Below are positions 28,423 through 55,265 of a stretch of 64,000 bases of DNA, piece by piece (positions within the stretch are counted from its first letter, which is position 1; the number at the start of each line of letters is the position of its first letter). The notes under the pieces were generated by a model. It had not been told where the DNA came from. It worked only from the letters and a program-made list of their open reading frames with translations, and did no database searches. A program made the translations under genes and the position numbers. Source of the stretch: an uncultured delta proteobacterium (lineage in GTDB: Bacteria; Desulfobacterota; Binatia; UBA9968); assembly GCA_963727625.1 (NCBI GenBank), contig CAVSHR010000003.1, positions 32,001 to 96,000 of the forward strand, in the 5' to 3' direction.

Positions 28423-28483
28423 CATTGTTTGTAACTATTGTCCCTTTTTATTCCAATTGTTCGCTAGCTTAGCGGTATCGATC

Positions 28484-36179: not shown

Positions 36180-37283
36180 ATGGCACAACAGCTCAAAATC
36201 ATCGATGGCGACGGCCATATTTTCGAGGACGGGGAGGCCATCGCCCGCCACTTTCCCTACAGCGCCGCGGGAGGCCGCCTGAGAAGCGGCGTATTTCCGC
36301 TGAACAGCCATATTCAATATTCGCTCACCCGCACTCCGCCGGGCGCCTTCGCCACTACTCCCGACGGTCGGTTTCAAAATCCCGGACCGGAAGGCTGGAT
36401 GGAGTTCATGGATCAAGCGGGGATCGACCATGCGGTGCTCTTTCCCACCGCCGGCCAGCGCATCGGCCGGATCGTCGACCGAGACTACGCCAGCGGCGCA
36501 GCCAGGGCTTACAATGACTGGTTGGCGGAGACCTATCTTCGGCGCGATTCGCGCTTCAAGGGCGTCGCGATTCTGCCGATGCATGATGCCGAAGCCGCCT
36601 TGGAGGAATTACATCATGCCTATCAAGAGCTGGGCCTGTGCGCCGTCCTGTTCCCGGCGACGGGCGTGCACCTGAACCTCGGCGCCAAGCCCCTCTGGCC
36701 GGTGTACGCCGAAGCGGCTCGGTTGGGCTGTCCGGTGGTCGTTCACGGCGGCGGCCACTGGGACCTGGGTATGGATACGATGAACGTTTCCACCGGCGCC
36801 AACGCCATCGGCCATCCCATGTCTCTGGCGATCGCTCTGGCGGAGATGGTCTTAAACAATCTCTTTGAGCGCTGCGCCGGCCTGCGCGTGGCCTACCTCG
36901 AGGGCGGTCCGCTCTGGTTTCTCATGGCGCTCGAACGTCTGTCGCGATCCTTTGAGGCAGGCACTCCGGTCAATCCTCGCGGCGAACTGCTGCAGTTGCC
37001 GGAGGGACAAACAGTCGCGGACTACATCCGGGGGCTGGTTCAAGCAGGCCGGCTGGTCGTGGGGATCGAAGGAGGGGAGTCCGACCTCGCTTACGCGATC
37101 CAGATCGCCGGTGAGCGCGCGTTTATGTTTTCGTCGGACTTTCCGCACGAGGTGAACCTTCTGACGATTCGTAAGGAAATTCGGGAACTTTGCGAGCGCG
37201 AGGAGATTAGCGAAGCAGCCAAGCAGGCGATCCTTGCCGGCAATGCCGCCCGGTTCTACAACCTGGCCTCGGCATCCAATTAG
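36180..37283 (+). CDS. Amidohydrolase family protein (Amidohydro_2)
   Basis: IIDGDGH, AYNDWLAE, VVVHGG, FSSDFPH, GNAARFY. Confidence 0.9.
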   Translation: MAQQLKIIDGDGHIFEDGEAIARHFPYSAAGGRLRSGVFPLNSHIQYSLTRTPPGAFATTPDGRFQNPGPEGWMEFMDQAGIDHAVLFPTAGQRIGRIVDRDYASGAARAYNDWLAETYLRRDSRFKGVAILPMHDAEAALEELHHAYQELGLCAVLFPATGVHLNLGAKPLWPVYAEAARLGCPVVVHGGGHWDLGMDTMNVSTGANAIGHPMSLAIALAEMVLNNLFERCAGLRVAYLEGGPLWFLMALERLSRSFEAGTPVNPRGELLQLPEGQTVADYIRGLVQAGRLVVGIEGGESDLAYAIQIAGERAFMFSSDFPHEVNLLTIRKEIRELCEREEISEAAKQAILAGNAARFYNLASASN

Positions 37284-37350
37284 ACGCCCGTAAACAAGGA
37301 ATGGCTGGCTCGCGGCATCGATGCTGAAAAAGCTCGGCTAAGGAGAGGAC

Positions 37351-38361
37351 ATGGAAATCGCCAAAATCATAGATTCCGACGGTCACGTTCAAGAGCACGA
37401 CGCCGATATCAGGCCGCACATGGAGGAGCCCTTTCGCCATCGACGAGGCAGCCTGCTGCCGAGCGACGAGTGGGACTCCAGCATGTACGGCACGCTGGGG
37501 ATGAAAGTCCGCGATGTGGCGATGCGGCTGGGCGATATGGACAAAGAGACCATCGACACCGCCGTGCTTTTTCCGACCAGCGCCTTTCATATGAGCCGTC
37601 TTGCGGAAAAGGATTACGCCGCGGCATACTGCCGGGCCTACAACAATTGGATCGCCGCACACTGCAACGAGAGCCCCCGGCTCAAAGGCGCGGCCCTCGT
37701 GCCGTTTCAGAATGTCGCCGCCGCGGCGGCGGAAGCGAACCGCGCGGTCACCAAGCTCGGCCTCGTCGGGGTCGCCATCGCCTCTTTCGGACTGAAAGAG
37801 CACTTGGGAAAGCCGGAATTTTGGCCGATCTACGAGGAACTGCAAAGGCTCAACGTGCCTCTTCTGGTGCACAACTCCCGCCAGGGGCCGGCAGGCGAGA
37901 TCCGCTTCGACACTTTTCTCTTCAAGCACACCATCGGGCGGCCGTTCGAGACGCTGCTCGACTGCGCGTCGCTGATGTACGGCGGCGTGCCGGAAAAGTT
38001 TCCCGACTTGCGCATCGCGTTTCTGGAGTGCGGCGCGGGCTGGGTCCCCTACTGGATGGATCGGATGGACGAGGAGTGGGAGAAACGGCAATCCGAGGCG
38101 CCGTTGCTCAAGGCCAAGCCCAGCGAATACATGACCCGCGGCAACTGGTACTTTGCCGCGGAACCGGAAGAGACCACTCTGCCCTATGTCCTCGATCGCC
38201 TAGGCGAAGATGTCATTCTTTTCGCTTCGGATTACCCCCACTGGGACGGCAACTTTCCCTACATGGTCGCGACGCTGAAAGAGCGCAAAGACATTTCCGA
38301 CAGCGCGAAGAAAAAAATTCTCTGCGAGAACGCCCTGCGGCTCTACGGCTGGAGCCGGTGA
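37351..38361 (+). CDS. Amidohydrolase family protein (Amidohydro_2)
   Basis: IIDSDGH, AYNNW, FLECGAGW, FASDYPHWD, ENALRLY. Confidence 0.9.
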   Translation: MEIAKIIDSDGHVQEHDADIRPHMEEPFRHRRGSLLPSDEWDSSMYGTLGMKVRDVAMRLGDMDKETIDTAVLFPTSAFHMSRLAEKDYAAAYCRAYNNWIAAHCNESPRLKGAALVPFQNVAAAAAEANRAVTKLGLVGVAIASFGLKEHLGKPEFWPIYEELQRLNVPLLVHNSRQGPAGEIRFDTFLFKHTIGRPFETLLDCASLMYGGVPEKFPDLRIAFLECGAGWVPYWMDRMDEEWEKRQSEAPLLKAKPSEYMTRGNWYFAAEPEETTLPYVLDRLGEDVILFASDYPHWDGNFPYMVATLKERKDISDSAKKKILCENALRLYGWSR

Positions 38362-40818: not shown

Positions 40819-41319
40819 ATGGATGTCGTTGCTCATGGTCTCTGGGGCGGCGCGCTCTTTTATTCCCAGGGGCGAAAGAAGTTTTTCGCCGGAGCTTTGA
40901 TCGGCATGGCGCCCGATCTGTTATCGTTCGGCGTGTTTCACGTCACCCATCCGGGATGGATCACGATGCGTCTGGCAGGGGAAATTTCCGGGCCGCCGCC
41001 GCTGACGCTGCTTCCGCCGTACGTCTTTCACGCCTACAACGTGACTCATAGTCTCGTCGTCTGGGCCGTCGCGTTTTTACTGCTCTGGCTCGTCATGAGA
41101 AAACCGCCGTGGCTATTGGCTGCTTGGCTTTTGCATATTCTCTGTGACATTCCCACGCACGCAACGAGTTATTTCCCGACGCCGTTCTTCTGGCCGTTTC
41201 CGACCCCGTTCGTCAACGGCATTCCATGGTCCACCCCATGGTTCATGGCGGCCAATTACTCGGCGATATTTGTGGTTTACTGCTGGCTGGTTTTTTATTT
41301 CCGCAGGGTGGCTAGCTGA
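40819..41319 (+). CDS. Membrane-bound metal-dependent hydrolase (YdjM/DUF457-like)
   Basis: MDVVAHG, GMAPDL, THSL, LHILCDIPTH, FWP motifs with TM segments. Confidence 0.8.
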   Translation: MDVVAHGLWGGALFYSQGRKKFFAGALIGMAPDLLSFGVFHVTHPGWITMRLAGEISGPPPLTLLPPYVFHAYNVTHSLVVWAVAFLLLWLVMRKPPWLLAAWLLHILCDIPTHATSYFPTPFFWPFPTPFVNGIPWSTPWFMAANYSAIFVVYCWLVFYFRRVAS

Positions 41320-41734
41320 AGAACAGCGACGCGATGCCGCTAACCGGAGCGTATCCAGGCTGCGAATCCTGATTTTGTCGGGTTGCTTGGATCTGTTCCT
41401 GTCGGGCACTCAAGAAGCGATTGGCAAGATCATGAAGGTGGTTGATCCCCGACTTGGGCATCGATCGATCAACTAAAGATAGTCAAGGTGTCAAGGCTTG
41501 TCCCTCACGGTCGCTCACAAATAATCCCCGCATCTATGATCAAAAAGGTGTGTCATATTTAATTAGCGCTTTGAAGATGAACGCATGACATCGCGTATTG
41601 GTTAAGAGGAATTATATCTGTGGAACCGATCGCCTCAAAATTCCAAAGTCGATTGCCGTTTGGGTTGGGGTCGACGATCCGTGCGCCCGGGCGACCTCGC
41701 ATGGACTCGCTATGAAATTGGACTTATTCCCTTT

Positions 41735-41938
41735 TCTCTTTACTCCCAAAGCACTCGCTCGTGCATCGTAAAAAAGGGGATGCGCTCCGGCGCCATGGCC
41801 ATTATGCTTGTGGCGCTCGAGAATGAATGGGATCCGCAAACGGCTTTGCATAAGGCCAGAGAGCCTGGGTTTGGCTGGAATCAGAATCCGCAACTGAAGA
41901 AATATTTTAAGTCTTACATTGCCCGGCACGATTCTTGA
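41735..41938 (+). pseudogene. Remnant of a protein-tyrosine-phosphatase-like (DUF442-type) gene
   Basis: Frameshifted LVH(R)KK/GMRSGAMA resembles the HCxxGxRS P-loop, followed by ALHKAREPGF; no intact 5' end. Confidence 0.45.
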
Positions 41939-41963
41939 GCTAAAGAAACTGCGTTCCTTCGAC

Positions 41964-42980
41964 CTAGATTTGATATAGGGCTTTGGCGTTGTCGTACAAG
42001 ATTTTGTCGATGATCCCCGCCTTGACCTCACCCTTGAGCCTGAGCTTTCGCAGCGCTTCGATCTCGCTCGAGGTGTCGGCATGGCCATAGTCCGAACCAA
42101 TGACTAGATGATCCTCACCCGCATATTTAAGGATGTACGGTAGGTCGTCGTCGGTTTGGCAGGCGACATAAATCCGGTTGTCGCGTAACAACGACGCGCC
42201 CGCGTGCTGGTTGGTTCTTTCTAATCGTTTTGCCAGTTCCACGGCGAGATAAGGAATCCATTGCGCTCTCACCTCGATGAAACCAAATCGCAGCTGAGGA
42301 AATTTTTTGGGAACGCCGTCATGCACGATCGAGTGAAACGCAGACAGCACGGGTAATTTGAACCGAGAAAACCCGCCTTCACCTTGAAACAATTCCACCC
42401 AATCGAAATTGCCGGTCGAAGCGTGAACGCAAATAGGCAAGCCGAGCCTTTCAGCTTGCTCATAAAGCGGGAAAAAATACGGGTCGCTCAAACGCTTATC
42501 GTCGACAATACCGCGGGTAAACAGCCCGCAGGCGCCGTTCGCCTTTGCGAATTTCGCCTCGGCGATGGCTTGGTCCAGGCTCATCAGGGGCACCACGGCG
42601 ACCCATCGAAGGCGGCCTTCTGCTTTGCTGCAGATATCCGTGAGCCAGCGGTTGTAGCTCCTGCAGATGGCCGTTTCGACTTCAGGGCGCTTGGTTAACG
42701 GCCGGAGAAAGAGGGATGGGTAAAGAACTTGAACATCGATATCGAGTTCATCCATGTGTTTCAGGCGAAGTTCAATGTCTTGCATCTCGCGCGAAGCCGC
42801 GGGGATGTCCTTGTTAACGTTGACCCCTCGACTGAACACCCTTCCATCAACTAACCAGAATTCTCGCCCTCCTTGGCCCGGAGACATTCGAAGCGGGCGG
42901 AGCTCGGCCTCTCCCGGCTCCATGTATTCCCAGGTGCGTTCGGTTTCGATGACGTGGGCGTCTGCATCGATCGTAGCCAT
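41964..42980 (-). CDS. Amidohydrolase family protein (Amidohydro_2)
   Basis: IDADAHV, SYNRWL, ICVH, GSDYGHAD, DNAKALY. Confidence 0.9.
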   Translation of the reverse strand: MATIDADAHVIETERTWEYMEPGEAELRPLRMSPGQGGREFWLVDGRVFSRGVNVNKDIPAASREMQDIELRLKHMDELDIDVQVLYPSLFLRPLTKRPEVETAICRSYNRWLTDICSKAEGRLRWVAVVPLMSLDQAIAEAKFAKANGACGLFTRGIVDDKRLSDPYFFPLYEQAERLGLPICVHASTGNFDWVELFQGEGGFSRFKLPVLSAFHSIVHDGVPKKFPQLRFGFIEVRAQWIPYLAVELAKRLERTNQHAGASLLRDNRIYVACQTDDDLPYILKYAGEDHLVIGSDYGHADTSSEIEALRKLRLKGEVKAGIIDKILYDNAKALYQI

Positions 42981-43010
42981 AATCCGTTTTTTCTCCTTGA
43001 ATGGCGCAAT

Positions 43011-43976
43011 CTAAGGCGTCTCCAAATAAACGATCTCGGGTTCGTGAACCGCTTTGAAACTTTTTGGCTTGTCCAAAACAGCCTGGCTCAAGTCCCGGCC
43101 TGATAGCAGTTCATACAGCAGTCCGATAGCCTGTGGACTGTTCTTGCGTGCCAGGCCGTGGGCCCGACCCATCTCCTGGATTTGGCTTGCCAGGCCAATC
43201 AGGGGTAACGGAACATTTAACTGGTTGGCGACCTTCAATGCCTGCCGAATATCCTTGTAGCTATTGCTCAGAGCGCCACCGTTATTATTGTTTCGCTGTA
43301 GGAATTCTTCCAAGCGCGTCGCCGATGCCTGTGATCCCGTGGTCTGGAGTAACTTGAGAAACAGCTCCGGGTTGATCCCTTGCGCCAAGAGCCAGGTGCA
43401 CACCTCGGCATTCAAAATGCTGCTCACGGTCGAAAACATGATGACCGCGATTTTTAGAGCCTTGGGCATCCACGGTTCCGGCAAACAAAGGACCTTCTGC
43501 GCGAGGCCCCGAAGCAACTCCGAGCACGCCTCCACCGTTTCTCTCTTGCCTCCGATCGCAATCGACAGCATTCCCTTGGGTATCGTTACGGCGGGTGCGC
43601 CATGGGCATGTAAGGTCCCACCAAGAAAGAACGCCTTTTTCTCGTTGACGTCGCGCTCGATGTCACGCGCGCAATCGGGATCCGTTCCGCTGAGGTCGAT
43701 ATACGTAAACCCCGGCGGCAAAGAGGAGCGAATGCCTTTATCGCCAAAGTAGGCCGCTCGGACCTCGACCGAAGACGGCAAAACGGTGAGTGTGATCGGT
43801 TTCGTGGCGTCGGCGGCTGAGTCCGCCGGAGCAGCGCCCAGTTCGACTAAAGTGGAAACGGCGGTTCGATTGAGATCATAGACAGTCAAGGAGTATCCCC
43901 GATCGAGGAGCCTTTCAGCCAGCGGCTTCCCCGCATTGCCCAGACCAATCAGGCCGATTTCGCTTTTTTTGTTCAT
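43011..43976 (-). CDS. NAD(P)-dependent oxidoreductase (3-hydroxyisobutyrate dehydrogenase family)
   Basis: IGLIGLGNAG Rossmann motif, IDLS, KDI..AL. Confidence 0.85.
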   Translation of the reverse strand: MNKKSEIGLIGLGNAGKPLAERLLDRGYSLTVYDLNRTAVSTLVELGAAPADSAADATKPITLTVLPSSVEVRAAYFGDKGIRSSLPPGFTYIDLSGTDPDCARDIERDVNEKKAFFLGGTLHAHGAPAVTIPKGMLSIAIGGKRETVEACSELLRGLAQKVLCLPEPWMPKALKIAVIMFSTVSSILNAEVCTWLLAQGINPELFLKLLQTTGSQASATRLEEFLQRNNNNGGALSNSYKDIRQALKVANQLNVPLPLIGLASQIQEMGRAHGLARKNSPQAIGLLYELLSGRDLSQAVLDKPKSFKAVHEPEIVYLETP

Positions 43977-45085
43977 TTTTTTGATCCCTCCAGCGCCTCG
44001 GTCACAATCTGTTGCATGGCTTTGATGGCTTTCCGGTTATTGTACTTGGACAGGCTCATGTGAAAATAGCGGACTCCTTCTTGGGGCACCCATTCTCGCG
44101 GTAGATCGTCCTTCGGTATATCCATACGGAGCGAATTGGTCTCCGTGTACTTCTGCCAGGCGATTTGTCCGTCGCGGGAAAGAACCCAGTTAATGAACAC
44201 TTTAGCTGCATTGGGGTGGGGCGCCTTGTTGAGATAAGCCATGCAACACGAGCCGCCTCCCATGATCTCGCCTTCCTTCATAGATTGGGAAATGAAAGCA
44301 ACCGGCAGGCCCTGTTCCTTCGCTTTTAAAATGGGCTGGGCACCGCCAATGTAAAGTTGGTATTTCCCGTCCGCCAACCAGTCCGTACCCTGGCGCAGAT
44401 CTCTTGTCAGTGTAACGTTCATATCTCTAAAGAGCCGCCGCAAAAATTCAGGGCCCAAATCCGGCGAGTGATAAAAAAACAAAAATATTGGAGCGCCTCC
44501 TCCGGTGGCTCGAGGATCGAAAACCACGAGCTTGCCTTTCCACTTAGGGTTTAGAAGATCGCGCCATGATCGAAATTCCTCGGGATTAACGAGTCTGGTG
44601 TTGTACGCAATTCGGTTAATTCCAACTTGCCCTGATATATTAATCACGTAGCGATTTTCAGGATCAGAAAAGGATAACTGCCCGCCCCACCATGCCGACT
44701 TTTCGGTAACTTCAGGCAGGATTAGAAGCGGGCGGATGGGATCAGCGACCCCTGCGGGATAAGACGCATACGTGCTCGCACCGCCCATAACGATATCCGT
44801 GACAAATTTTCCGGCTCGTCGTTCTCCCAGAATGCGTTTGGCATGGTTCGATCCTCGTCCGGGAAGAAAATTGAATTTGATCTCTGGAAACGATTTGCTA
44901 AACGCCTCCCATACGTGCTGGTACACGGGATTATGCGGCCCATAAACGGAGAGATTTCCTTCGTTTTTGGCGGCCTCAACGGTTGTTTCCCATTCTTTTG
45001 TTTTGCTAGTTTGACCGAATGCCGTACCAACGGCTGCGCCAATAAGTATAAAAAGTATCGGCACGTAACATTTGATATTTTTCAT
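43973..45085 (-). CDS. Extracellular solute-binding protein (Fe3+/thiamine-type ABC SBP)
   Basis: Signal peptide, AAKNEG, YNTRLV, DLLNPKWKGK, APHPNAAKVFINWVLS. Confidence 0.88.
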   Translation of the reverse strand: MKNIKCYVPILFILIGAAVGTAFGQTSKTKEWETTVEAAKNEGNLSVYGPHNPVYQHVWEAFSKSFPEIKFNFLPGRGSNHAKRILGERRAGKFVTDIVMGGASTYASYPAGVADPIRPLLILPEVTEKSAWWGGQLSFSDPENRYVINISGQVGINRIAYNTRLVNPEEFRSWRDLLNPKWKGKLVVFDPRATGGGAPIFLFFYHSPDLGPEFLRRLFRDMNVTLTRDLRQGTDWLADGKYQLYIGGAQPILKAKEQGLPVAFISQSMKEGEIMGGGSCCMAYLNKAPHPNAAKVFINWVLSRDGQIAWQKYTETNSLRMDIPKDDLPREWVPQEGVRYFHMSLSKYNNRKAIKAMQQIVTEALEGSKK

Positions 45086-45426
45086 ATGATCTCCTGCGCT
45101 TTTTCGGTGAGGGCCTTCGGGTTCCAGCTCGCAGTTATAGCAAGCGGACGTCAGTTTTGGCAATGATTGCGACCCGTGAGCTGCGTCAGAGTCATGTCGA
45201 GAAAAGCGTGAATGTAGGTGGGTTTATGAGGCGTGTCTTGCGGTACAATGCCGGCCCGCGTCATCCTACCGAGCATTTGAAATTAAGCTTCGCGTAAGCC
45301 GCCACTATGCGGAAAGGCGCGACAGCAGGACGACAGTGACAGATTTGCGTTTGTTGCGTACGCTGTTCGTGCTCGTAATATTCGCACTCATCGCAAGTCT
45401 GACATTTAGCCTTTTACCTGAAGACA

Positions 45427-45648
45427 CCGCCGTGGTTGTTGGGCGCGTGGCTGCTGCACATCGTCTGCGATATCCCGACACACGCGGCGAGCTATTTTCC
45501 AACGCCTTTCCTCTGGCCGTTTCCGACCCCGTTCGTCAACGGCATTCCATGGTCCACGCCGTGGTTCATGGCGGCCAATTACCCGGCGCTGATCGTTGTT
45601 TATTGCTGGCTGATTTTTTTCCGCGGCAAAACTAAAGCACGTACCTGA
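45427..45648 (+). pseudogene. Second copy (3' ~220 bp) of the 40819-41319 hydrolase gene
   Basis: PPWLLGAWLLHIVCDIPTHAASYFPTPFLWPFPTPFVNGIPWSTPWFMAANY; no 5' half. Confidence 0.9.
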
Positions 45649-45808
45649 GAAGCTTTGCCGCGCCCGGAAAGATTCTAAGCTCGTGATTGGAAGACCGCCC
45701 TTCGGTAACCCTCAGCATCGTTCAAATCCAAATTCGAAAGCCGCGCGTCAAAGCCCGACTCTCGAATTCCCCGACCCGGCCACGGCGGCTGGCGACGACG
45801 GGGAGGCG

Positions 45809-46024
45809 TCACGTATTTGCGGGAGTTTCCGCGGCTCCGATGCGCTGGATATATTCGTCGATCTGACTCTGCAATTGCCGCAGTTGCTCGAGAGGACCTT
45901 CGGCGAACAGGGCGAAATTCCGGGTATCACGCGTCAAGATTTCGTTGCGGTAGGATTCAAGAAGGCGCTGCATCCGCCCCATCTGTTCGATCGCCTGATA
46001 GAGTTGTTCCACCGTCTCGATCAT
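45809..46024 (-). CDS. Small helical protein coupled to the nucleotidyltransferase remnant (putative TA partner)
   Basis: ATGA overlap with the upstream gene stop; 71 aa. Confidence 0.7.
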   Translation of the reverse strand: MIETVEQLYQAIEQMGRMQRLLESYRNEILTRDTRNFALFAEGPLEQLRQLQSQIDEYIQRIGAAETPANT

Positions 46025-46314
46025 AATGCGATCCTCAAAAGGCCCTTTTTCCTGCCGGGTCGCTGTTTGACCTGCTGAAAGAAGTCGACCATGTGATCAA
46101 AATTTTCGCTCCCATTCTTCACCACGACTATATCAAATCCAAACCGCCTGCGCATTCTGCGCTGTGAGAGCAAATTGTAAGCGGCCGGCGACAGGTCCGT
46201 TGAAAGATCGAAGTTTGACGCTGCGACAAGCACGGGGTCTATGTCGTTTGGCTCCGGCGTCCCGGTTAAAAAAACTCCCGTCCACCAGCACGGCCTCACG
46301 ATGGCGCCACACAC
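46021..46314 (-). pseudogene. 5'-truncated, frameshifted minimal nucleotidyltransferase (DUF6932-like)
   Basis: AVLVDGSF in one frame and TGTPEPNDID in the next, shifted at a T-run near 46270. Confidence 0.7.
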
Positions 46315-46379
46315 ATGAGCTGAATATTTGACAAAACTTCCCGCAGCCCTTAAGCTACGGATACCTACGGAGGAATATC

Positions 46380-46640
46380 ATGCTCTCCAAGCGTGTCGAA
46401 ATTTTATTGGATCCGGCAGAGATGGAAGCGTTGCGCCGGCAGGCGAAGAAGACCAAGAAATCCGTCGGCGCCTTGATTCGCGAAGCGGTCAAAGAAAAGT
46501 TTTTGACTCCCACTCCAAAGGAACGGAAAGAAGCGTTGAAGCGTCTGTTCTCATCGCAGCGCTCGGTCAGCTTTCCGTCCTGGAACAAGATCAAAAGGGA
46601 ACTGGACGATAGCATGAGGAGAGGGAGTGAGACTCGTTGA
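46380..46640 (+). CDS. CopG/RHH antitoxin (VapB-like)
   Basis: KRVEILL...LRRQAK...SVGALIREAV RHH pattern; overlaps the PIN gene. Confidence 0.85.
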   Translation: MLSKRVEILLDPAEMEALRRQAKKTKKSVGALIREAVKEKFLTPTPKERKEALKRLFSSQRSVSFPSWNKIKRELDDSMRRGSETR

Positions 46641-47025
46641 CACCAATGTCCTCATTTACGCCGTCGGAAGGACTCATTCCTTGCAAGGTGACGCGCGAAG
46701 AGTACTCGATCGGATTGCCGAGGGCGCATTGCATGCCAACGTTGACGCCGAGGTGTTGCAGGAAATTCTTCACGTCTACGACGCGCGCAAGGAAAGAACC
46801 AAAGGATTCGCCACCCTTGAAGATCTTCTGGTGATTTTTCCAAACCCGATTGCGATCGCAAGGGAAGAAATCGAAAGAGCGCGCGACCTGATGCGCGCGC
46901 ACTCTTTCCTCGGCGCTCGCGATGCGATCCACGCAGCCGTCGTCCAGACCCACGACCTCGAAGGAATCGTCAGCGCCGATAAAGTCTTTGACCGAATAAA
47001 AGGTGTGAAAAGGTTCGCCCTCTAG
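46627..47025 (+). CDS. vapC: VapC PIN-domain toxin
   Basis: LVDTNVLIY, EVLQE, RDAIHAA, SADKVFD. Confidence 0.92.
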   Translation: MRLVDTNVLIYAVGRTHSLQGDARRVLDRIAEGALHANVDAEVLQEILHVYDARKERTKGFATLEDLLVIFPNPIAIAREEIERARDLMRAHSFLGARDAIHAAVVQTHDLEGIVSADKVFDRIKGVKRFAL

Positions 47026-47093
47026 GGCTCTCCACAAGCGTCGATTCCGTCCGTTCCTCGACCTGACGGATTATCACTAACGCGAGGGATTTT

Positions 47094-47408
47094 ATGAGCG
47101 TTGCTAATAAGCGAGCACGAAAAATTCGACCTGTTCATCCCGGTGAAATTCTGCGCGAGGATTTTCTTCCGGATTACGGACTGACGATCTCGAGTTTCGC
47201 CCGGGCCCTCGGGGTTTCCCGTCAGACGGTGAACGAGCTGCTGCGCGAACGGCGCTCGCTCAGCCCGGAAATGGCGCTGCGCCTCTCTCGTTTGTTCGGC
47301 AACAGCGCCGAATTCTGGCTCAATGCCCAGCGCGCCGTCGATCTGTGGGAGGCTGAAAAAAGCGTCAAGGACGACCTCAAGCAGATTTCCCCGTTAAATG
47401 CCGCCTAG
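47094..47408 (+). CDS. higA: HigA family antitoxin (orphan; no higB upstream)
   Basis: PVHPGEILREDFL, ALGVSRQTVNEL, MALRLSRLFG, FWLNAQ. Confidence 0.93.
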   Translation: MSVANKRARKIRPVHPGEILREDFLPDYGLTISSFARALGVSRQTVNELLRERRSLSPEMALRLSRLFGNSAEFWLNAQRAVDLWEAEKSVKDDLKQISPLNAA

Positions 47409-47429
47409 CGGCTCGCGGCGAAAGTCGTC

Positions 47430-47517
47430 CAAGGGGGGTGTGGTTCACGTCGTGGCCGTGCCGCGCCAGTACCGCGCAGAGACCTGGCGGCAGGTGCGCG
47501 TCCACGAGAAACTTCAT
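47430..47517 (-). pseudogene. Truncated DUF5615 PIN-like toxin
   Basis: MKFLVDAHLPPGLCAVLARHGHDVNH, then similarity is lost; ATGA overlap with the DUF433 stop. Confidence 0.75.
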
Positions 47518-47752
47518 GCGAGCGGCAAGTGGATCGTTCTGGCGGCTAACATCCGGCGCGCGAATTCATGGCATGCGAGAATATCTTCGCGCTCGAGATC
47601 CGGAAACTGTCTGAGGAGATCTTCGATCGTATCGCCGCCGGCGAGATATTCGAGGATCGTCTCTACCGGATAGCGCAGCCCCCGAAGGCACGGCTTGCCG
47701 TGGCATATTTCGGGTCCACGGTGATCCGGGAAAGCAACTTGTCACTGGACAT
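47514..47752 (-). pseudogene. DUF433 antitoxin with a single-base frameshift
   Basis: MSSDKLLSRITVDPK / (I)CHGKPCLRGLRYPVETILEYLAGGDTIEDLLRQFPDLEREDILAC; one base missing near 47708. Confidence 0.85.
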
Positions 47753-47789
47753 AGGCGAATTCTACACCGACGGCCGCAGGTTGCAACCC

Positions 47790-48090
47790 GATAGGGGACC
47801 ATTCCCGTCGCTCTGGAGGCGGCCCCTATCCAGCGGCACCAGGCCGGCGGCCCGGATGAAGAATTCAATGGGCGCGCGCTCTACGCATTCTGCCGCAAGC
47901 TCATGGACCACGGCGTCTTCACGCTTTTCGACAAGCTGCACATCATCGTTTCGGCAAGCGCCGATGGGTCCGGAGGACTCCGGAAATGGGCGATCGCCTC
48001 TCACGCGCGGCGCTCCGCCCGCCCCAGAGTCCGAACTATTACCCCGGCAAATCGGTCGTCGAATGGCTCCAGGGCCCGGAACGATGCCAA
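47790..48090 (+). pseudogene. Decayed C-terminal part of an HNH restriction endonuclease
   Basis: PVALEAAPIQRHQAGGPDEEFNGRALYAFCRKLMDHGVFTL matches the HNH_2 pattern LEAAHI...GPD...NGLALC..HH..FD.G with catalytic His residues lost. Confidence 0.75.
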
Positions 48091-48176
48091 GGTCCGGCTT
48101 GACCGGACGCGACCCCGAAATCCGCGCATCGTTCAAATCCAAATCGGAAAGCCCGAGTTTTTGACTTTTCGCAATT

Positions 48177-48587
48177 CTATCGGGGTATGCGAACGAACCC
48201 GCCATATTCGTCGAAGTGATGATCAAACGCGAAGGCGTGGTCGATACCGAGTCTTTCCATGACGCTGAAACTCGTGCAATCGACGAAGCTGAACAAATGA
48301 TCTGAATAGTTCCGAAAGACTTGCAACGCCTTCTGCAAATCAGCGGGCGTAATATTTTGCAGGACGGCGGACTGTTGTCTCAGGATGGATGAAGCGACTC
48401 GCACGGCCAGCCGATGGCCGCGTGCGGTTCTGTCCCGCATTCGTATGAGGGTCGCAGTTTCCGCCAATACATAATCCGTGGTGATCAACGGCTCGCGGTT
48501 TCGGCGGAGCCATCTCATAGCCGCTTCATGGTCTGGGTCATTGGCTACGGCGACGGCAAACCATGCGCCCGTGTCGACAAAGATCAC
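48177..48587 (-). CDS. vapC: VapC PIN-domain toxin
   Basis: IFVDTGAW, DYVLAE, FSFVDCTSF, AFDHHF. Confidence 0.92.
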   Translation of the reverse strand: MIFVDTGAWFAVAVANDPDHEAAMRWLRRNREPLITTDYVLAETATLIRMRDRTARGHRLAVRVASSILRQQSAVLQNITPADLQKALQVFRNYSDHLFSFVDCTSFSVMERLGIDHAFAFDHHFDEYGGFVRIPR

Positions 48588-48826
48588 GATTCATTCCTGT
48601 AAAGGATGATGTCGTGTTCTCGTCCCGAGAACCCATCTTTCAGCCTCGTCCCAGCCCATCTCGCAATGGCGGAGATCTGTCTTTTTGCCAAAAGCCCGTC
48701 GTTACGGCCGACCGCGTGGCGCCTGCCATTCCGTTTTTTCAGAGAATCGATAAACTCCTGGACGTCTTTCAAGGACTCCTCGGACAGTCCTTCCAACGCC
48801 CGCAAGATCTCCGGTTTGCCGGCCAT
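48584..48826 (-). CDS. Putative antitoxin of the adjacent VapC
   Basis: GAGGAGG RBS, ATGA coupling to vapC, C-terminal SGREHDIILY typical of VapB partners. Confidence 0.8.
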   Translation of the reverse strand: MAGKPEILRALEGLSEESLKDVQEFIDSLKKRNGRRHAVGRNDGLLAKRQISAIARWAGTRLKDGFSGREHDIILYRNES

Positions 48827-49020
48827 GGGCGCCTCCTCGATTTTCAACGTTTTTTTTGCGGCTGACTCCCAAAACGAAATATAACAGGAACCGTGGATTG
48901 ACCACAATCGTTGAGTCGGGCTGACAAATAATCTTCCCTGGCGTGGCTCTTCACCCTGGAACTTTCCATGGAGTGGCTCATGAGCTTACGCTCGCCCACA
49001 GAGAATGAAAAAGCCAGCGG

Positions 49021-49087
49021 GAAAGATTCCCTCGCGTCCACTCGGAATGACAAGGCCTGTCATCTCGAACGAAGTGAGAGATCTTTC
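49021..49087. repeat. REP-like palindromic intergenic element
   Basis: GAAAGATTCCCTCG...GGAATGACA-AGGCC-TGTCATCTCGAACGAAGTGAGAGATCTTTC inverted pair. Confidence 0.7.
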
Positions 49088-49235
49088 TCCAGTCCTATTT
49101 TTCGAAGGAGGGTTCTTCCAGGAGACTGGCAGCTCGAGAATTGATCCCTCTGCACCCAGGTTTGGGTCGAATGCGGGTTCCCGGCGCCCGCAAAGTCCAG
49201 ACTCTTGCCTGATCGCAGACCCTGCTTCCGCGCAC

Positions 49236-49496
49236 GAAGAATTCAATGGGCGTGCGCTCTACACATTGCGCCGCAAGCTCTTCGACCACGGCGTCTTCAC
49301 GCTATCCGACAAGCTGAACATCATCGCTTAGGAACGCGCCGACAGGATCTGAGGACTCCGGGAATGGGCGATCGCCTCTCACGGCGCGGCACTCCGCCCG
49401 CCGCAAAGCCGATGCAATTGTCCCGGCAAATGGATCGTGGAATAGCACGTCAAAGAAGCGTACCAGGGCCCGAAAAGATACAAAGCTCGTGATTGA
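49236..49496 (+). pseudogene. Second decayed copy of the HNH endonuclease 3' end
   Basis: EEFNGRALYTLRRKLFDHGVFTLSDKLNIIA* aligns at nucleotide level with about 47858-48100; in-frame stop. Confidence 0.75.
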
Positions 49497-49643
49497 CGGC
49501 GCTCGCTCCGGGACGCGATGTGCGATCGGGCGTTTTTATTCGCGGTATGCGCCGAACCACCGGCTTCCATTCCGTGGCTACCAGCGCGGCGACCGAAATT
49601 CAGAAGACCCCCTTTCTCACCCCGACGCAAATCCATCCGGCGC

Positions 49644-49772
49644 CCCCACGCCTTTTTTTTGGCCGTTTCCGACCCCCTTCGTCAACGGCATTCCATGGTC
49701 CACGCCGTGGTTCATGGCGGGAAATTATACAGCGCTGTTTGTAGTTTACTGCTAGCTGGTTTTTTGTTTCCT
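49644..49772 (+). pseudogene. Third copy (3' ~125 bp) of the 40819-41319 hydrolase gene
   Basis: PTPFFWPFPTPFVNGIPWSTPWFMAGNYTALFVVYC* with TGG changed to TAG. Confidence 0.9.
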
Positions 49773-49797: not shown

Positions 49798-51258
49798 TTA
49801 GGCTAAAGCGGCCCGAAGTTCAGAAATCATTTCGTCAATTCTCTCGCCCATCGGCAAAGCTACCATTACCAAATCGATCTTCCGCTTACTCGCGTAAATC
49901 GCAGCCCTGTTGCTCACCAACCCCCTTTCCTTAAGTGATGTCCATGCCTCGATATTGCAGGGATAAGCGAGGCAAACGGTGGTGGCCTTGTTATCAGAAA
50001 GAGTCGAGTAGGCTAAAACCTGCAACAGATCATCACGATGGTGCTCCCGGAGCTCATTTTCCAGCTTCGACCAACGTTGATACTGTAAAGCCTCCCAGTG
50101 ATCTTTGTATTTGGCGTCAACGAAGATCGTGTGTTCTTCTTGCTCGATGACAAGATCCGGCAAAAGATATTTTTGCGATCCCAAGAATGGACGTTCCCAA
50201 GCTATAGGAGTAATGGTTTCGCGGCGGCGTCCGACACGAAGTCGCCCTCCATACCGTCTTGTGAAGCGTTGGAAGACTGTTTCTACCCACGCCTCAAAAA
50301 ATTGCTCCATCGACATCGTCCATGGCAGTCCACGCCAATCTGTCAATCCCCCCAGCCCGGTCTCTTCCGTGCTCCACGTGATAGCATTTAATCCATCGAC
50401 GAAAGATTTCGACGCAAGAGGTACTCGAAACCAACTATCCAATTGCTTGCGCGTAGGTCGCATCGGTGACACACCTTCGACTAAATGCAGAAGTGTCATG
50501 CAGATCTTCATGAGTTCGATAACAATTATTCCGGCATGGCGTTGCGATTCGAGCGAAGCGAGTTGTTTTCGAAGAACGTAGTGGATGGCCCCGAACAATT
50601 CGCGATTGCTGCGAAGATCAGGATAGCGGCAGGGGACATCGAGAAACTTCATTAATGGGAGTTGCTTGATTACGTAACTTTCCCAATTTATCTGTCCATG
50701 AGGTGCCGCGCGTACGGTTTCTACGATCTCAAATCGCCTCGCTAATTGATCAAGCATGGCTCTCAATCGCGGCAGAATCGTTGCCGAAAGAACCCAGTCT
50801 GGAATTTCTCTCTCCGTCTTCGGGAGTAGTGGGAGTGATAGAACCTGAGGAACGACCTTGAAACCACTGGCTCCTAAAGAACATCCCAAACCCGACCAGC
50901 CGAATCGAGGACGGACGATGAGCGTTACCTCTGCTTTTCCGGAAATAGGCGAGATTAAGGGGAATGCGCCGATTTGTGAGCCGGCCTGAAAGACAATGGA
51001 AACACGATGCCCGTCAAAATCGACTCGCGCCATAATACCGAACTGCGCTAACGTCTGTCCGTTCTGCTCGATGAAATGATGCGCGAGTTGTGCCTCGCGC
51101 GATGGATCACTCAGGTGCGCACGTGTGATTGCTGAGGCATTGACACGAGTGCTCGACGTGTCATCGAGCGGAATTGCTTCAAACTTACTTGGCTCAATCC
51201 GACGAAATAGAGAGTTTGATCGTCGGATACGGCGTCGTTGTTTTAGATCTGGACTCAC
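49798..51258 (-). CDS. mcrC: McrC-like PD-(D/E)xK nuclease subunit
   Basis: MEQFFEAWV, LLPDLVI..IFVDAKYK, DLLQVLAY; GTG start overlaps the McrB stop. Confidence 0.85.
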   Translation of the reverse strand: MSPDLKQRRRIRRSNSLFRRIEPSKFEAIPLDDTSSTRVNASAITRAHLSDPSREAQLAHHFIEQNGQTLAQFGIMARVDFDGHRVSIVFQAGSQIGAFPLISPISGKAEVTLIVRPRFGWSGLGCSLGASGFKVVPQVLSLPLLPKTEREIPDWVLSATILPRLRAMLDQLARRFEIVETVRAAPHGQINWESYVIKQLPLMKFLDVPCRYPDLRSNRELFGAIHYVLRKQLASLESQRHAGIIVIELMKICMTLLHLVEGVSPMRPTRKQLDSWFRVPLASKSFVDGLNAITWSTEETGLGGLTDWRGLPWTMSMEQFFEAWVETVFQRFTRRYGGRLRVGRRRETITPIAWERPFLGSQKYLLPDLVIEQEEHTIFVDAKYKDHWEALQYQRWSKLENELREHHRDDLLQVLAYSTLSDNKATTVCLAYPCNIEAWTSLKERGLVSNRAAIYASKRKIDLVMVALPMGERIDEMISELRAALA

Positions 51259-52736
51259 TACGATTCTGCCGTCAGAGATCCCACCCACTGGCAGTAGCCT
51301 CGGATGTGATCCGAAAAGCTCGTAACGTAGCCCTGCGCAAGATATTCTTCTAAAAGAGGAATCAAATTTACGCGCAATGACTTTAGCGCTGTGGCGTCTT
51401 GCCCATCTTTGGGCAGGAAATAGGAATGGCCCGGCATCAGCGTGAATGCGTCATCAGACGCATATTCCATGAAGATCGAGAGCAACCGTCTAAATGCCTC
51501 CTCGGCTAGCTTGCTTCCACAATTTTGAACTACGGCAAACTGTGGCCAGAGTTTTACAAACGCGAAGCGCCGGCGAATGGCAATGTCTACAATCGCAATA
51601 CTTCGGTCGGCGCTATTCATGGTTCCGAGAATATGGAGGTTGGGTGGTAACGCAAGCCTATTGAAAAACGGTGGACCAAAATCGTGTGACAGATTAATTG
51701 AACGTGGTTTGTCCTCCATATATTCCAAGAGAAAAACGGCCTCGCCAAGAACTTTGGCAAGATCCGCTCGATTAATCTCGTCTATGTGCAAAATGTATGG
51801 ATTGGGCTTAATTTTTTCAGCTGCTGCAGCAGCTTTCATCAGTTCACCCATGACTGGCACGAACCGGAAGCCGACGTCTCCACCGGTTGCTAAAGGTGCT
51901 AAGCCACCAATAAAATTCTCGTACGTAGTATTGGGATGAAATTGAATTGATTGCCCACGGCCATGATAATGGGCCTGCAACAATTCCAGAGCCATGCGAG
52001 TCTTGCCCGTTCCCGGTGGGCCTTCGAGCACAACAAAGGCCCTTTCGGAAAGCAAGTCGGCTGCTTGGCGTGTTGTGATGTCTGGCATTAGACATTTGAA
52101 GTACTCGGACCTAATTATCTCGTAATCGTCCAAATATGGTTTCAGTGGAACAAATCCACGGTCCTCAAAATAGAGATCCAGGAATGCTTTCAGTACGAAC
52201 TCTGTCGCTGTACGATCTGAATTTGGACGATAAATTGCGTGAACGTCTTTGCCGTAGCGCTTCAGCGGAGCAGCGTATAGTTGAAAGTGACTGGCAACAT
52301 TTTCGGGCACTGCCAAGTCGGTGCGTGTCGGATCATGTTTTGCCCACGCCGCAAAACGTTTCTCACGCCGATTGATCGCTTCACAGATAGCCTGAGCTTT
52401 CCTCGCATGACCGGGCCTCGCAAGAATAGTTTCATCAGGGTGCAAACCGGTTGTCCCAGTTCCGAGTGCGATTAAACAGGGCTCACCTTCTACAGGGAAG
52501 ATACCGACGCTCATGCCACCATAAGGTCCTGACTTTGGATTTGACGGTTCTATCAGGGTGGAGAACGGAATATTGTTCTCATCAGTAAATTTGGGGGCGC
52601 GAATTTGCACCGCTTGCCTAGCACGCTCTGGATACCGACCAGTCGATCCCCCGAACAATTCGCTGAATGCTTCTACTGCTTTCTCACTCCACATGGACAG
52701 ATCGTGGTCGTAGATTAATTTGACTAGTTTCTCCAT
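51258..52736 (-). CDS. mcrB: McrB-like AAA+ GTPase
   Basis: GPPGTGKT, IQFHPNTTYENF, IDEINRA, GTMNSADRS (NxxD), AIRRRF. Confidence 0.9.
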   Translation of the reverse strand: MEKLVKLIYDHDLSMWSEKAVEAFSELFGGSTGRYPERARQAVQIRAPKFTDENNIPFSTLIEPSNPKSGPYGGMSVGIFPVEGEPCLIALGTGTTGLHPDETILARPGHARKAQAICEAINRREKRFAAWAKHDPTRTDLAVPENVASHFQLYAAPLKRYGKDVHAIYRPNSDRTATEFVLKAFLDLYFEDRGFVPLKPYLDDYEIIRSEYFKCLMPDITTRQAADLLSERAFVVLEGPPGTGKTRMALELLQAHYHGRGQSIQFHPNTTYENFIGGLAPLATGGDVGFRFVPVMGELMKAAAAAEKIKPNPYILHIDEINRADLAKVLGEAVFLLEYMEDKPRSINLSHDFGPPFFNRLALPPNLHILGTMNSADRSIAIVDIAIRRRFAFVKLWPQFAVVQNCGSKLAEEAFRRLLSIFMEYASDDAFTLMPGHSYFLPKDGQDATALKSLRVNLIPLLEEYLAQGYVTSFSDHIRGYCQWVGSLTAES

Positions 52737-52759: not shown

Positions 52760-53014
52760 TTAAAATCCCTCTGAACCGTCTTCCTTGCCAAGTACCACAG
52801 CAATTGCTAGCGCATTGCGTAGAATAAATGCCCCGTAGTTATCCACAAGTCTTAGAATCTCAACTGCACCAGATACACTCCAATCTGCCGAGGCAGAGAG
52901 TTCTTTGACTATTTTCGACTCATCATATCCACCCTGTGCGTCATTGAGTTCTGTTTTACGGAGAACAATCTCATATTCGCGAATTAAGGACTCTACGTAT
53001 TCACCTTCTTTCAT
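52760..53014 (-). CDS. Small acidic hypothetical protein upstream of mcrB
   Basis: 84-aa ORF ending 23 nt before mcrB on the same strand, with similarly low GC. Confidence 0.7.
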   Translation of the reverse strand: MKEGEYVESLIREYEIVLRKTELNDAQGGYDESKIVKELSASADWSVSGAVEILRLVDNYGAFILRNALAIAVVLGKEDGSEGF

Positions 53015-53095
53015 GAGCCTTACCCCCGTTTCGTCCTTGATCGCATATATTTAGTACTCTCCGAGAGGAAAAGTCGATCTAGGAAAAGTTTATGA

Positions 53096-53115
53096 GATCA
53101 GGCTACTTTTACAAT
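53096..53115 (+). repeat. 20-bp direct repeat, copy 1
   Basis: GATCAGGCTACTTTTACAAT; 17/20 identical to 54727-54746. Confidence 0.55.
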
Positions 53116-53233
53116 ATACTCCGGGTGTAATCATGCTTCTCGTGTAGCGACGCTTCCAGGTTACGCTGCCTGCGGATATAGGCCGCGGCGATGCCTTGTA
53201 GCGCCGGGTATCGGTTTTGAAAAGAATTATTCA

Positions 53234-53965
53234 TTACACAAAGAGGCATCGATTACCGAAACACACGATCGGGTCAAACACGGACATGTTCATTCTCCGT
53301 AGATGGTTTCTCCCCAGCGTCACCCCGTGGACGGGTCGAGCTCCGCGGTACGCTGCTTCGATGATTTGCCTCGCCTCGAACGCGACGAAAGTGGTATTGG
53401 ACGCGTTGCCACGCCAAGAATCGAGCATCACGAGTCCGTCATAACCCCTGGCGATCAACTGCTTGCGCACGCCGCCCCTCAAAGGAGTATCGAATCGCAG
53501 AACCACCCAGGCGGTCAGCTCCATCCCCGCCGGCGCACGGTCGAGCTTGCCCGCAAGTGGAGTGCCGTCGATGTCGATGCCGTTCTCGGAAAACCAGCGC
53601 CGCCACTCGGCGGGAGTGAGCGCGACATAGGGGCGCAGGCCAAGGGGATTTTTGAGCACGAGGTAAAATCGCCGGATAAACCACGGCACGTTGATCTCGT
53701 CGCGGGCGAAATTGCGCGCCCAAGTTTTGGAAGCGGCGAAATAAAAATAGCAGTGCTCTCCCACGGTGCCGTAGGACTTCGGCTGCAGATCGGCGGTTGT
53801 CGGCGACGCGTGATAAACCGGAAGCGGAGCGCCGCTCGCATCAACCACCTTGCTGGCACGAAACCAGCGCTGGAACGACTCGCTCTTTATTCCGCGCTTC
53901 GCCGGAGGGGTTGCGAGCTCGAAGGGTTCTTGGGCCGGCCGTCTTTCTCTGAGCATCGGCCGCAC
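53234..53965 (-). CDS. Stand-alone ADP-ribosyltransferase-like protein (ART-PolyVal-like)
   Basis: FQRWFRASKVVDASGAPLPVYH, YFYF....WA, FYLVLKNPL, GYDGLV, FVAFEARQI match the ART-PolyVal pattern as I recall it. Confidence 0.75.
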   Translation of the reverse strand: MRPMLRERRPAQEPFELATPPAKRGIKSESFQRWFRASKVVDASGAPLPVYHASPTTADLQPKSYGTVGEHCYFYFAASKTWARNFARDEINVPWFIRRFYLVLKNPLGLRPYVALTPAEWRRWFSENGIDIDGTPLAGKLDRAPAGMELTAWVVLRFDTPLRGGVRKQLIARGYDGLVMLDSWRGNASNTTFVAFEARQIIEAAYRGARPVHGVTLGRNHLRRMNMSVFDPIVCFGNRCLFV

Positions 53966-54260
53966 TTTAACAAAGCTGCGAGAATCGGTCCACTTTTTTT
54001 CGCCGTTGGCGTCCCGGTTTTTGTTTTACTGGCCGAGCCGGATTTTTGTCTTCCGTTTTCGAAGAAACCGCTCCGAGCGTTCCCGTCGCCTGGCATGAGT
54101 CCAATGGAATAGCTCTATCGCTGCGCTCGCCGAAGCGGTTCTGCCGGGACGGGCATTCAATAAATCACGGTTCGAGATTTCGACCGCGGGCGAAAAACTC
54201 GCGGGAACGCCGCCGCGTTTCGGGAATCGCCGTAACGTGCATGTGGCGTGGGATGCCTTC

Positions 54261-54452
54261 TTATTTTGGATCCGGGATGCCGAGCTGGCGGCAAATCTTG
54301 CGCGCGAGGAAGTCTGCGATCTCGGTGTGCCTTGGAAGCGTGGTAACACGGCGCGGATCAGCGAGATTGACGAATTTGCTGTGCTTTGCCCCCTCATCGG
54401 CGAGAACACATCCGAACCGCTCCAGGTGCCGAACGAGCTCCCGCCGCTTCAC
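54261..54452 (-). CDS. hicA: HicA mRNA interferase toxin
   Basis: MKRRELVRHLE..GC...EGAKHS...LPRHTEI...ICRQLGI. Confidence 0.92.
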   Translation of the reverse strand: MKRRELVRHLERFGCVLADEGAKHSKFVNLADPRRVTTLPRHTEIADFLARKICRQLGIPDPK

Positions 54453-54653
54453 TTACACCTCGATCTGTTCGATCACGACCTTGCTCTTGGGAAGCTTCGA
54501 TAGATCCACCGGCTCGCGAATCATGCGCACCGCGTCGATAAGATTTTCACGCGCCTCTTCGAGAGTCGCGCCCTGCGTCAGTGCGCCTGGAACGTCATCG
54601 GTCCACGCCACCCACCATTTGCCGTCCTTCACAAAGCTAGCCTGGATTTTCAT
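54453..54653 (-). CDS. hicB: HicB antitoxin (short form, no DNA-binding domain)
   Basis: WWVA...VPGALTQGATLEEARENLIDA. Confidence 0.92.
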   Translation of the reverse strand: MKIQASFVKDGKWWVAWTDDVPGALTQGATLEEARENLIDAVRMIREPVDLSKLPKSKVVIEQIEV

Positions 54654-54726
54654 ATAATCGATCTCCTGCCGGCATTTATTTTATGCAAAACGGCCGGGCA
54701 ATACCAATCCTTGGGAAATTAAACGG

Positions 54727-54746
54727 GATCAGGCTGCTTTTGTAAT
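54727..54746 (+). repeat. 20-bp direct repeat, copy 2
   Basis: GATCAGGCTGCTTTTGTAAT. Confidence 0.55.
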
Positions 54747-55005
54747 GTCGCACGTTACGGAATTGTTACGGGCGTTGTTGCTTTTTGCTCGATAATCTCA
54801 GTTGGTTTTAGGCGTATCCAATCGTCAAGTGGCCGATACATCGGTCACCGAAACAGACGCGGGCGGCCGGGCTACGGGTCGGACCTCCGCAACTCCTCGA
54901 TACGACGAGATTGAGCTTCGAAAAATTCATCGTTTAAGCGCTTAGAAGGCAAATTTCTAATCCAAAACGCCGCTTCTAACTCGCAATCTGGACGATGACA
55001 AGTTA

Positions 55006-55200
55006 TCAGAGAAGCGACAAGCTACTTATATCCGAGAAATCAATCTTCTTCGACTTCATATTTTTTCCCTTCTGTGCGGCTCGCCCGGCGCGCGCTGATC
55101 ATTCGCGGACTTCTTCATCGTCTTGGTTCGATGCTTCTTGGATTTGCCCGTGTTGGCGGTGAGCACGAGCAGGTCTTGCAATCACAATCGGCTCGCGGGC
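55006..55200 (-). pseudogene. BrnT/BrnA toxin-antitoxin remnant
   Basis: ...DDEEV/RMISARRASRTEGKKYE* (BrnT RIISARkA motif) overlapping MKSKKIDFSDI (BrnA-type start), which stops after 17 codons. Confidence 0.7.
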
Positions 55201-55265
55201 TGACGAAGATCCGCGTTACGACCTGAAAAGTTTCATCGGTCGCACCGGTTTAAGATTGGCCAACG

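Follow-up and report, generated by a model that had tools for sequence, protein, structure and literature searches.

How can the 3' end of one protein-coding gene stand three times in a row, each time followed by different genes, with the gene itself intact and no integrase in the neighborhood? This question is raised by a stretch of 64,000 nucleotides (nt), here called the window, from an uncultured delta proteobacterium of the Binatia lineage UBA9968 (GCA_963727625.1, contig CAVSHR010000003.1, positions 32,001 to 96,000). In this window a gene of the YdjM/DUF457 family, here called ydjM, is followed by two displaced ydjM 3' fragments, and the three copies bound two blocks of cargo genes, E1 and E2 (Table 1). 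We propose that two small elements, neither of them with a recombinase gene, were inserted here in tandem by a recombinase acting in trans or since lost, a reading to which we assign a probability of about 0.5.

Three copies of a gene end and their common core

A repeat finder returned one direct family with three copies (41096-41296, 45419-45619 and 49565-49765). Copy 1 is the end of the intact open reading frame (ORF) of 166 amino acids (aa), and copies 2 and 3 are the fragments 45419-45648 and 49648-49772 behind it. A preliminary description of the locus had reported a 3' end present three times in direct orientation around an invariant core of 44 bp, and both statements hold. The 44-mer occurs with 0 mismatches at 41191-41234 and 45514-45557 and with 1 mismatch at 49660-49703; by chance no occurrence is expected (none in 100 shuffles). 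No fourth repeat copy, including one that would close the McrBC-like block beyond copy 3, was detected by tblastn or blastn-short. The frame of copy 2 is open between PPWLL (45427) and its stop codon (45646-45648), and it is interrupted by stops further upstream. Copy 3 begins at ~49648 (TPFFWPF...), has acquired a TGG-to-TAG stop at 49753-49755 and ends in a diverged tail; its sole core mismatch, at 49677, falls inside the 7-nt spacer of the dyad described below. The edges of homology are sharp (~45419 in copy 2, ~49648 in copy 3), and further upstream of them alignments were no better than those of shuffled sequences.

Copies 1 and 2 differ at 25 positions over the 93 nt from 41096 to 41188, and 17 of these 25 are third codon positions; the preliminary description had noted that the 85 bp upstream differ at most third codon positions. 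Over the following 46 nt (41189-41234) there is no mismatch (0/46 in the core vs 25/93 upstream, Fisher p=2.5e-5), and the next 25 nt contain 2. Synonymous conservation of core versus flanks, put forward earlier as a check, gives the same picture: among the 29 upstream codons 9 are identical, 16 differ only synonymously and 4 change the amino acid, compared with 14/15 identical codons in the core (Fisher p=9e-5). Between copies 2 and 3, a stretch of 61 nt contains a single mismatch. In all three copy pairs identity begins at the same position on the left, within 3 nt, which would be expected of a single fixed site.

No peptide of the YdjM family is more conserved than WPFPTPFVNGIPWST, which the core encodes. 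Such conservation could inflate identity at the DNA level, and the core was therefore compared with 24 orthologue genes out of the genome scan described below. Each orthologue has 5-14 mismatches to the 44-mer (median 9.5) and no identical run longer than 14 nt. Core identity is at least 95.6% among the three window copies and at most 88.9% to any of the 24 orthologues, and the flanking coding segments of the three copies are 73-82% identical. Synonymous core codons vary freely in the orthologues (ACC129 in 3/24, CCA136 in 3/10 and ACC139 in 1/21 keeping the residue). The preliminary description had raised the possibility that orthologues conserve the core equally well, and they do not. Thus, the identity of the core is, by this comparison, a property of this locus and not family-wide DNA conservation. 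The imperfect dyad noticed earlier is present, GCCGTT(TCC)GAC-7 nt-GTCAACGGC, with 9 bp, a 3-nt bulge and a 7-nt spacer. An equal dyad was obtained in 22/3000 shuffled 44-mers (0.7%) and in 50/2908 44-mers of the window (1.7%), and it is perfect in just 1 of the 24 orthologues and hence not a feature of the family. As single-stranded DNA, 64 nt at the core fold with z=-3.46, matched by 1/200 shuffles. The spacer mismatch of copy 3 would hinder further exchange with this copy.

Target gene and origin of the fragments

The 166-aa protein matches PF04307 with 29.1 bits against a cutoff of 29 over residues 12-153 (Pfam), which is most of the family profile. It has 571 homologues that align end to end, with a best identity of 87%; these homologues bear PF04307, several are named YbcI or DUF457 by their source, and those with a named source come mostly from metagenome-assembled genomes (MAGs) of Binatia or "delta proteobacterium". 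By its sequence the protein is a member of the YdjM/YbcI (PF04307, DUF457) family of membrane-bound metal-dependent hydrolases, with a predicted hydrolase activity. The window amidohydrolase is present in the protein collection (P0144, on a contig of 232,600 nt), and the 166-aa protein is not among the 120 family matches listed; the source annotation may have left its ORF uncalled or called it differently.

The divergence of copy 2 from copy 1 is mostly synonymous (16 vs 4 codons), and the four replacement residues upstream of the core all occur in homologues. This predominance of synonymous changes indicates purifying selection, and thus import from a working gene of another lineage rather than local duplication. 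The fragments are foreign in origin. The tail of copy 2 (…WLIF-FRGKTKART) has a one-residue deletion and an FRGK motif as in the full-length proteins P0004 and P0005 (21/29 residues each). P0005 shares 84/95 of the N-terminal residues with the window gene and is joint-closest among the matches listed. This likeness to the closest relatives suggests that the copy-2 tail may have been the working tail of the gene until E1 arrived. The target gene has been kept whole, and its present tail would have come with an element. This present tail (…VFYFRRVAS) differs from that of P0004 and P0005, and its type is seen elsewhere only in the short fragment P0128 (…FRRVAEPF).

Proposed integration route and competing explanations

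Direct repeats flanking unrelated DNA, a gene that stays whole and a chimeric origin are together explained, we infer, only by the integration of a circle with a partial 3' end. Each element would arrive as such a circle, composed of a partial ydjM 3' end (upstream codons, core, and tail with stop) and cargo. Recombination at the 44-46-bp core would join the chromosomal 5' part to the tail of the element, so that the gene remains whole, and the former tail would be left downstream as a dead fragment. E2 would have come first, displacing the tail that is now copy 3 with its stop codon and core mismatch. E1 would have come later and next to the gene, displacing the tail that is now copy 2, still an open frame, and pushing older elements outward. 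This order is suggested, not demonstrated, by the decay states of copies 3 and 2. The joining would most likely be the work of a site-specific recombinase that acts on the core with its dyad and whose gene lies beyond the window or has been lost. E1 and E2 would then be equivalents of cis-mobilizable elements (CIMEs) stacked by accretion. In favor of this route, one core is common to the three direct copies, and the cargo of the intervals is unrelated. The preliminary description had proposed that cargo was captured serially at an att-like site within a protein-coding gene, and the repeats have the corresponding anatomy of attL, hybrid and attR.

Several observations weigh against this proposal. 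No integrase, recombinase, transposase or excisionase domain, not even a remnant, was found in the 64 kb with Pfam and NCBIfam, in agreement with the earlier statement that a local integrase is missing. The scan covered 30 island ORFs, 74 non-overlapping window ORFs, 132 stop-to-stop frames of at least 45 aa from unannotated island parts, and 25 further ORFs. Simple decay does not readily account for the lack of a recombinase in both elements. Upstream of its core, copy 2 still has 95 nt of well-preserved coding sequence, for which a site-specific attP has no use and which it would not maintain by selection. The ends of E1 and E2 share nothing beyond chance (best local alignment 26 vs a shuffle maximum of 24; the other three pairs of ends below the shuffle maximum; no alignment >29 nt), and thus no common arm sites are visible. 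The evidence from the dyad is weak (p about 0.01-0.02). An attP-like copy was found neither in the phage collection nor in the plasmid collection, where the one match was a distant full-length gene (Aquincola, 41% identical). Finally, a genome scan with the two most conserved peptides of the family, one of them within the core, and a tblastn filter reduced 63 pattern matches to 38 related loci from genomes other than that of the window (best protein identity 84%), each of which holds one gene copy and none a second 3' fragment. Likewise, there is no recombinase among the 134 downstream ORFs of the 27 closer relatives. The hotspot of the preliminary description thus finds no support in these loci.

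The strongest competitor is RecA-type homologous recombination between the gene and a circle carrying a ydjM 3' fragment and cargo. The core would then be a crossover or gene-conversion tract and not a protein-binding site. We take this possibility seriously without favoring it. It would fit the lack of a recombinase gene in the 64 kb, and also the different upstream lengths of the fragments (95 nt vs ~12 nt), as the model for Rhs genes predicts variable core lengths (PMC2935791). Moreover, the upstream part of copy 2 is like a piece of a recently functional gene, which fits gene conversion or a chromosomal cut, and identity decays gradually rightward of the core (copies 1 and 2, 25 nt with 2 mismatches; copies 2 and 3, 61 nt with 1), which resembles conversion tracts. 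However, donors as diverged as the flanks (73-82% at the nucleotide level) should share runs of at most 14 nt and would be a very poor substrate. The same left edge of identity in three copies would need repeated coincident tracts, and the cargo is not a pair of tip and immunity gene, so that the selection at work in the Rhs case has no counterpart here. At the opposite end stands a more specialized idea, in which the core WPFPTPFVNGIPWST would be a fixed docking site, like the attI site of integrons but within a protein-coding gene, where self-expressed gene blocks lacking a recombinase are inserted serially by a dedicated recombinase encoded elsewhere in Binatia genomes. The one pointer to it so far is the absence of a recombinase, and we consider it unlikely; if true, the locus would represent a hitherto undescribed kind of platform for the capture of cassettes.

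Two further explanations concern the history of the contig rather than the enzyme. The tandem order could be an artefact of assembly, in which circular or strain-variant sequences sharing the 46-61-nt core were threaded into one contig. The exact shared core is indeed shorter than many assembler k-mers can resolve, and since the retrieved relatives are nearly all MAGs, the window is probably a metagenome assembly too. Nevertheless, this is quite improbable: real molecules must contain the junctions between non-gene DNA and a truncated gene at 45419 and 49648, the three flanks have diverged from each other beyond the level of strain variants, and the interpretation as elements with an attP would hold even if the order were wrong. 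Least probable in our view is that the region 41.3-55.9 kb was imported once, as a ready composite island from another Binatia genome. The lower GC content is uniform across the whole tract, and transfer of whole accreted composites has been reported (PMC5704250). Yet the repeat beside the gene would still need one integration at the core, the unlike decay of copies 2 and 3 argues for events at different times, and the right end of the tract has no repeat. In a variant of this explanation the fragments would be old local duplications, but the predominance of synonymous changes in copy 2 excludes it. Among these explanations, serial site-specific integration of two recombinase-less elements is the one that we prefer.

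Cargo, surroundings and known systems

Table 1. Positions of the features of the ydjM locus in the window.
Feature	Position	Strand	Remarks
Intact YdjM/YbcI/DUF457-family membrane-protein gene, 166 aa	40819-41319	+	PF04307; carries repeat copy 1; proposed integration target
Core, copy 1	41189-41234	+	46 nt identical to copy 2; includes 44-mer 41191-41234; encodes (F)WPFPTPFVNGIPWST
E1, cargo only	41320-45418	.	three intact minus-strand genes; non-coding stretches at both ends; GC 0.48-0.58 vs ~0.60-0.63 upstream
Amidohydro_2 hydrolase (E1)	41964-42980	-	Pfam/NCBIfam
NAD-binding 6PGDH/HIBADH-like dehydrogenase (E1)	43011-43976	-	Pfam/NCBIfam
Solute-binding protein (E1)	43973-45163	-	Pfam/NCBIfam
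Copy 2, displaced 3' fragment	45419-45648	+	codons ~96 to stop; core 45514-45557
E2, toxin-antitoxin-type patchwork, partly decayed	45649-49647	.	domain matches and internal repeats
DUF6932 (E2)	46021-46314	-	
RHH+PIN (E2)	46380-47025	+	
HigA (E2)	47094-47408	+	without visible HigB
DUF5615/DUF433 (E2)	47380-47741	-	
PIN and small ORF upstream (E2)	48177-48907	-	
Further ORF (E2)	49005-49331	+	
Copy 3, most decayed 3' fragment	49648-49772	+	core 49660-49703; ~12 nt upstream of core
McrC-like gene	49798-51288	-	PF10117 at 5.6e-9
McrB-like AAA_5 gene	51258-52736	-	PF07728 at 3.6e-15
Rest of low-GC tract	52760-55900	.	Pfam/NCBIfam matches, GC
ART-PolyVal-like ORF, borderline	53234-53965	-	31.0 bits vs cutoff 31.2
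HicA/HicB-like	54264-54680	-	
Antitoxin-like gene and partner	55266-55825	-	

Each copy is followed by different cargo, as the preliminary description had stated: a catabolic trio, a toxin-antitoxin cluster and a McrBC-like pair. Its further suggestion that defense cassettes accumulate at the site is not supported by this content, since E1 is metabolic, several of the toxin-antitoxin genes of E2 are decayed, and the McrBC-like block lies beyond the last repeat. Homologues of the E1 amidohydrolase (65-89% identity) come from soil metagenomes, the few named ones from Binatia, Udaeobacter, Terriglobales and Acidoferrales. Amidohydro_2 paralogues also occur at 36180-38361, in native DNA a short way upstream of the target gene. 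In the relatives L005 (6409-7449) and L011 (3832-4884), ydjM is likewise preceded by a gene whose product is homologous to the E1 hydrolase (52% and 47% identity, respectively). Thus, cargo of this type is common around ydjM in the clade.

Within E2, the stretch 47853-48153 matches 49231-49495. About 250 nt, made up of the 3' end of the ORF at 49005-49331 (as a truncated copy) and the sequence behind it, are present again at 47853-48101 (87% over 167 nt). A box of 42 nt, the A box, lies directly after the copy-2 stop (within 45648-45742) and again at 48060-48101 and 49454-49495, and a B box of 28 nt is found at 45715-45742 and 48126-48153 (93%). As single-stranded DNA these boxes are unstructured (z -0.75, -1.0 and +0.79 vs shuffles), and no IntI was found. 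Hence the toxin-antitoxin cluster is not an integron array, and an array of cassettes with attC sites, in an integron or in a cluster of attC sites lacking an integron integrase (CALIN), was rejected. A tRNA or transfer-messenger RNA (tmRNA) gene as target was rejected as well, as the window has neither; Rfam families gave 0 matches in 40-57 kb at E up to 0.1.

The McrBC-like pair (49798-52736) follows directly beyond copy 3 and has no ydjM repeat on its far side. Its McrB-like protein scores 97.5 bits with the NCBIfam McrB model, far below the cutoff of 637. The PADLOC McrBC model gave no match, and PADLOC matches were weak or generic only. The GC content is 0.46-0.61 between 41 and 56 kb, 0.56-0.63 in the 5 kb upstream of the target gene and 0.60-0.68 downstream of 56 kb, being back at 0.68 by ~56000. 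The low-GC tract thus runs ~6 kb past the last repeat and ends without one, and the McrBC block can therefore not be assigned to this integration site. An ORF resembling ART-PolyVal (ADP-ribosyltransferase) sits in a GC-rich patch (0.61) between the McrBC-like and HicAB-like pairs. The window resembles a piece of chromosome from a bacterium of the Candidatus Binatia type. Housekeeping genes (pilBC, ppdK, dnaK/J, lon, dnaA-dnaN and others) occupy the first 40 kb of the window. Since dnaA (28415-29818) and dnaN (30053-31159) lie ~10 kb upstream of the locus, the island is close to the likely region of the replication origin.

Of the 27 closer-relative loci, nearly all are labeled as Binatia or delta/Deltaproteobacteria, and 19 are followed by 5 kb or more of sequence downstream of the gene. 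Upstream of ydjM, an hsp20 gene is found in L002, L005, L006 and L013, as in the window. Downstream, none of the 38 loci shares synteny with the window, and thus an empty site cannot be defined at this evolutionary distance. A gene of the glutathione S-transferase (GST) family lies at most 6 kb downstream in 11/27 relatives (L002, L005, L006, L007, L010, L012, L014, L016, L017, L019 and L021), and the scan of the window ORFs gave no GST domain; what originally lay downstream may hence have been exchanged or relocated. C-terminal fragments make up 6 of 22 short metagenome proteins, and in four of the 6 the first residue lies near position 101-105 of the family. All 6 may be att-type remnants or truncations at contig ends. 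Fragment P0125 starts with 15 unrelated residues, and P0137 carries a frameshift within the core; P0127 and P0128 are short metagenome ORFs too, and the contigs of these four are 0.9-4 kb long.

To our knowledge, Binatia are known from metagenomes only. In the literature we found nothing in print on mobile elements or genomic islands of Binatia, and nothing on ydjM as an integration site or on DUF457 together with an integrase; the items retrieved were unrelated. Comparable arrays are nevertheless known from other bacteria, and the preliminary description overstated the case in calling the integration hotspot undescribed: tandem att-bounded elements without integrase have been reported (PMC5704250; PMC3146451), and so has the displacement of Rhs C-termini (PMC2935791). 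CIMEs are integrase-less elements that keep att sites and lie in tandem with others, and their stacking is termed accretion (PMC5704250). E1 and E2 resemble CIMEs of the ICESt1/ICESt3 type in the lack of integration and transfer genes, in the tandem stacking and in a target gene that is kept whole. In line with accretion, three copies bound E1 and E2, the 166-aa ORF would have been reconstituted from an element, and a short identical core lies amid diverged flanks. A cognate tyrosine or serine recombinase, which also belongs to such systems, was found neither in the 64 kb nor downstream in the 27 relatives. In the cases reported there, a related integrase-bearing integrative and conjugative or mobilizable element (ICE/IME) occupies the same site, whereas there is none in the window or the 38 loci, and the target here, a ydjM-family gene of Binatia, is new.

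In Dehalococcoides, arrays of islands are bounded by repeats of the ssrA 3' end, and 15 islands without an integration module were proposed to be CIMEs (PMC3146451). Tandem islands downstream of one gene, direct 3'-end repeats and catabolic cargo are shared with the ydjM locus. However, ssrA is an RNA gene, its repeat measures 20 bp and the serine recombinase DsiB is encoded on 16 islands, while the ydjM repeat is a coding fragment of 125-230 nt for which no recombinase is known. Tycheposons stack with partial tRNAs, and successive integrations push older elements into the island (bioRxiv 10.1101/2020.12.28.424599). As in their arrays in Prochlorococcus, serial integration at one site leaves partial copies of the target and degraded remnants with cargo, but tycheposons target tRNA genes, and their defining features, a tyrosine recombinase and replication genes, are missing from the ydjM locus. 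For Rhs C-terminal displacement, a circular intermediate and homologous recombination have been proposed (PMC2935791). Rhs arrays likewise consist of an intact gene followed by displaced 3' ends with a core of variable length, with genes between them and no integrase, and displaced tips with variable core fragments are also seen at the ydjM locus (95 nt vs ~12 nt upstream). However, Rhs genes have long core tracts of high identity and toxin-domain tips with immunity genes, and neither a toxin tip with an immunity gene nor a long high-identity core was found at the ydjM locus. Its copies share a tract of 44-61 nt, their tails are membrane-protein segments of 25-30 residues, and the cargo has no relation to ydjM. 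The novelty thus appears to lie in the target gene, in the host clade and in two elements that both consist of cargo alone; the mode of integration itself is known.

The locus yields a precise candidate attachment site of 44-46 bp and two defined cargo modules, which makes the search for a cognate recombinase straightforward and a direct test of recombinase versus homologous recombination feasible. Should the site not be reused, it would be one more case of accreted island remnants. If it is reused across strains, it would provide a handle on the exchange of metabolic and toxin-antitoxin genes among these soil bacteria.

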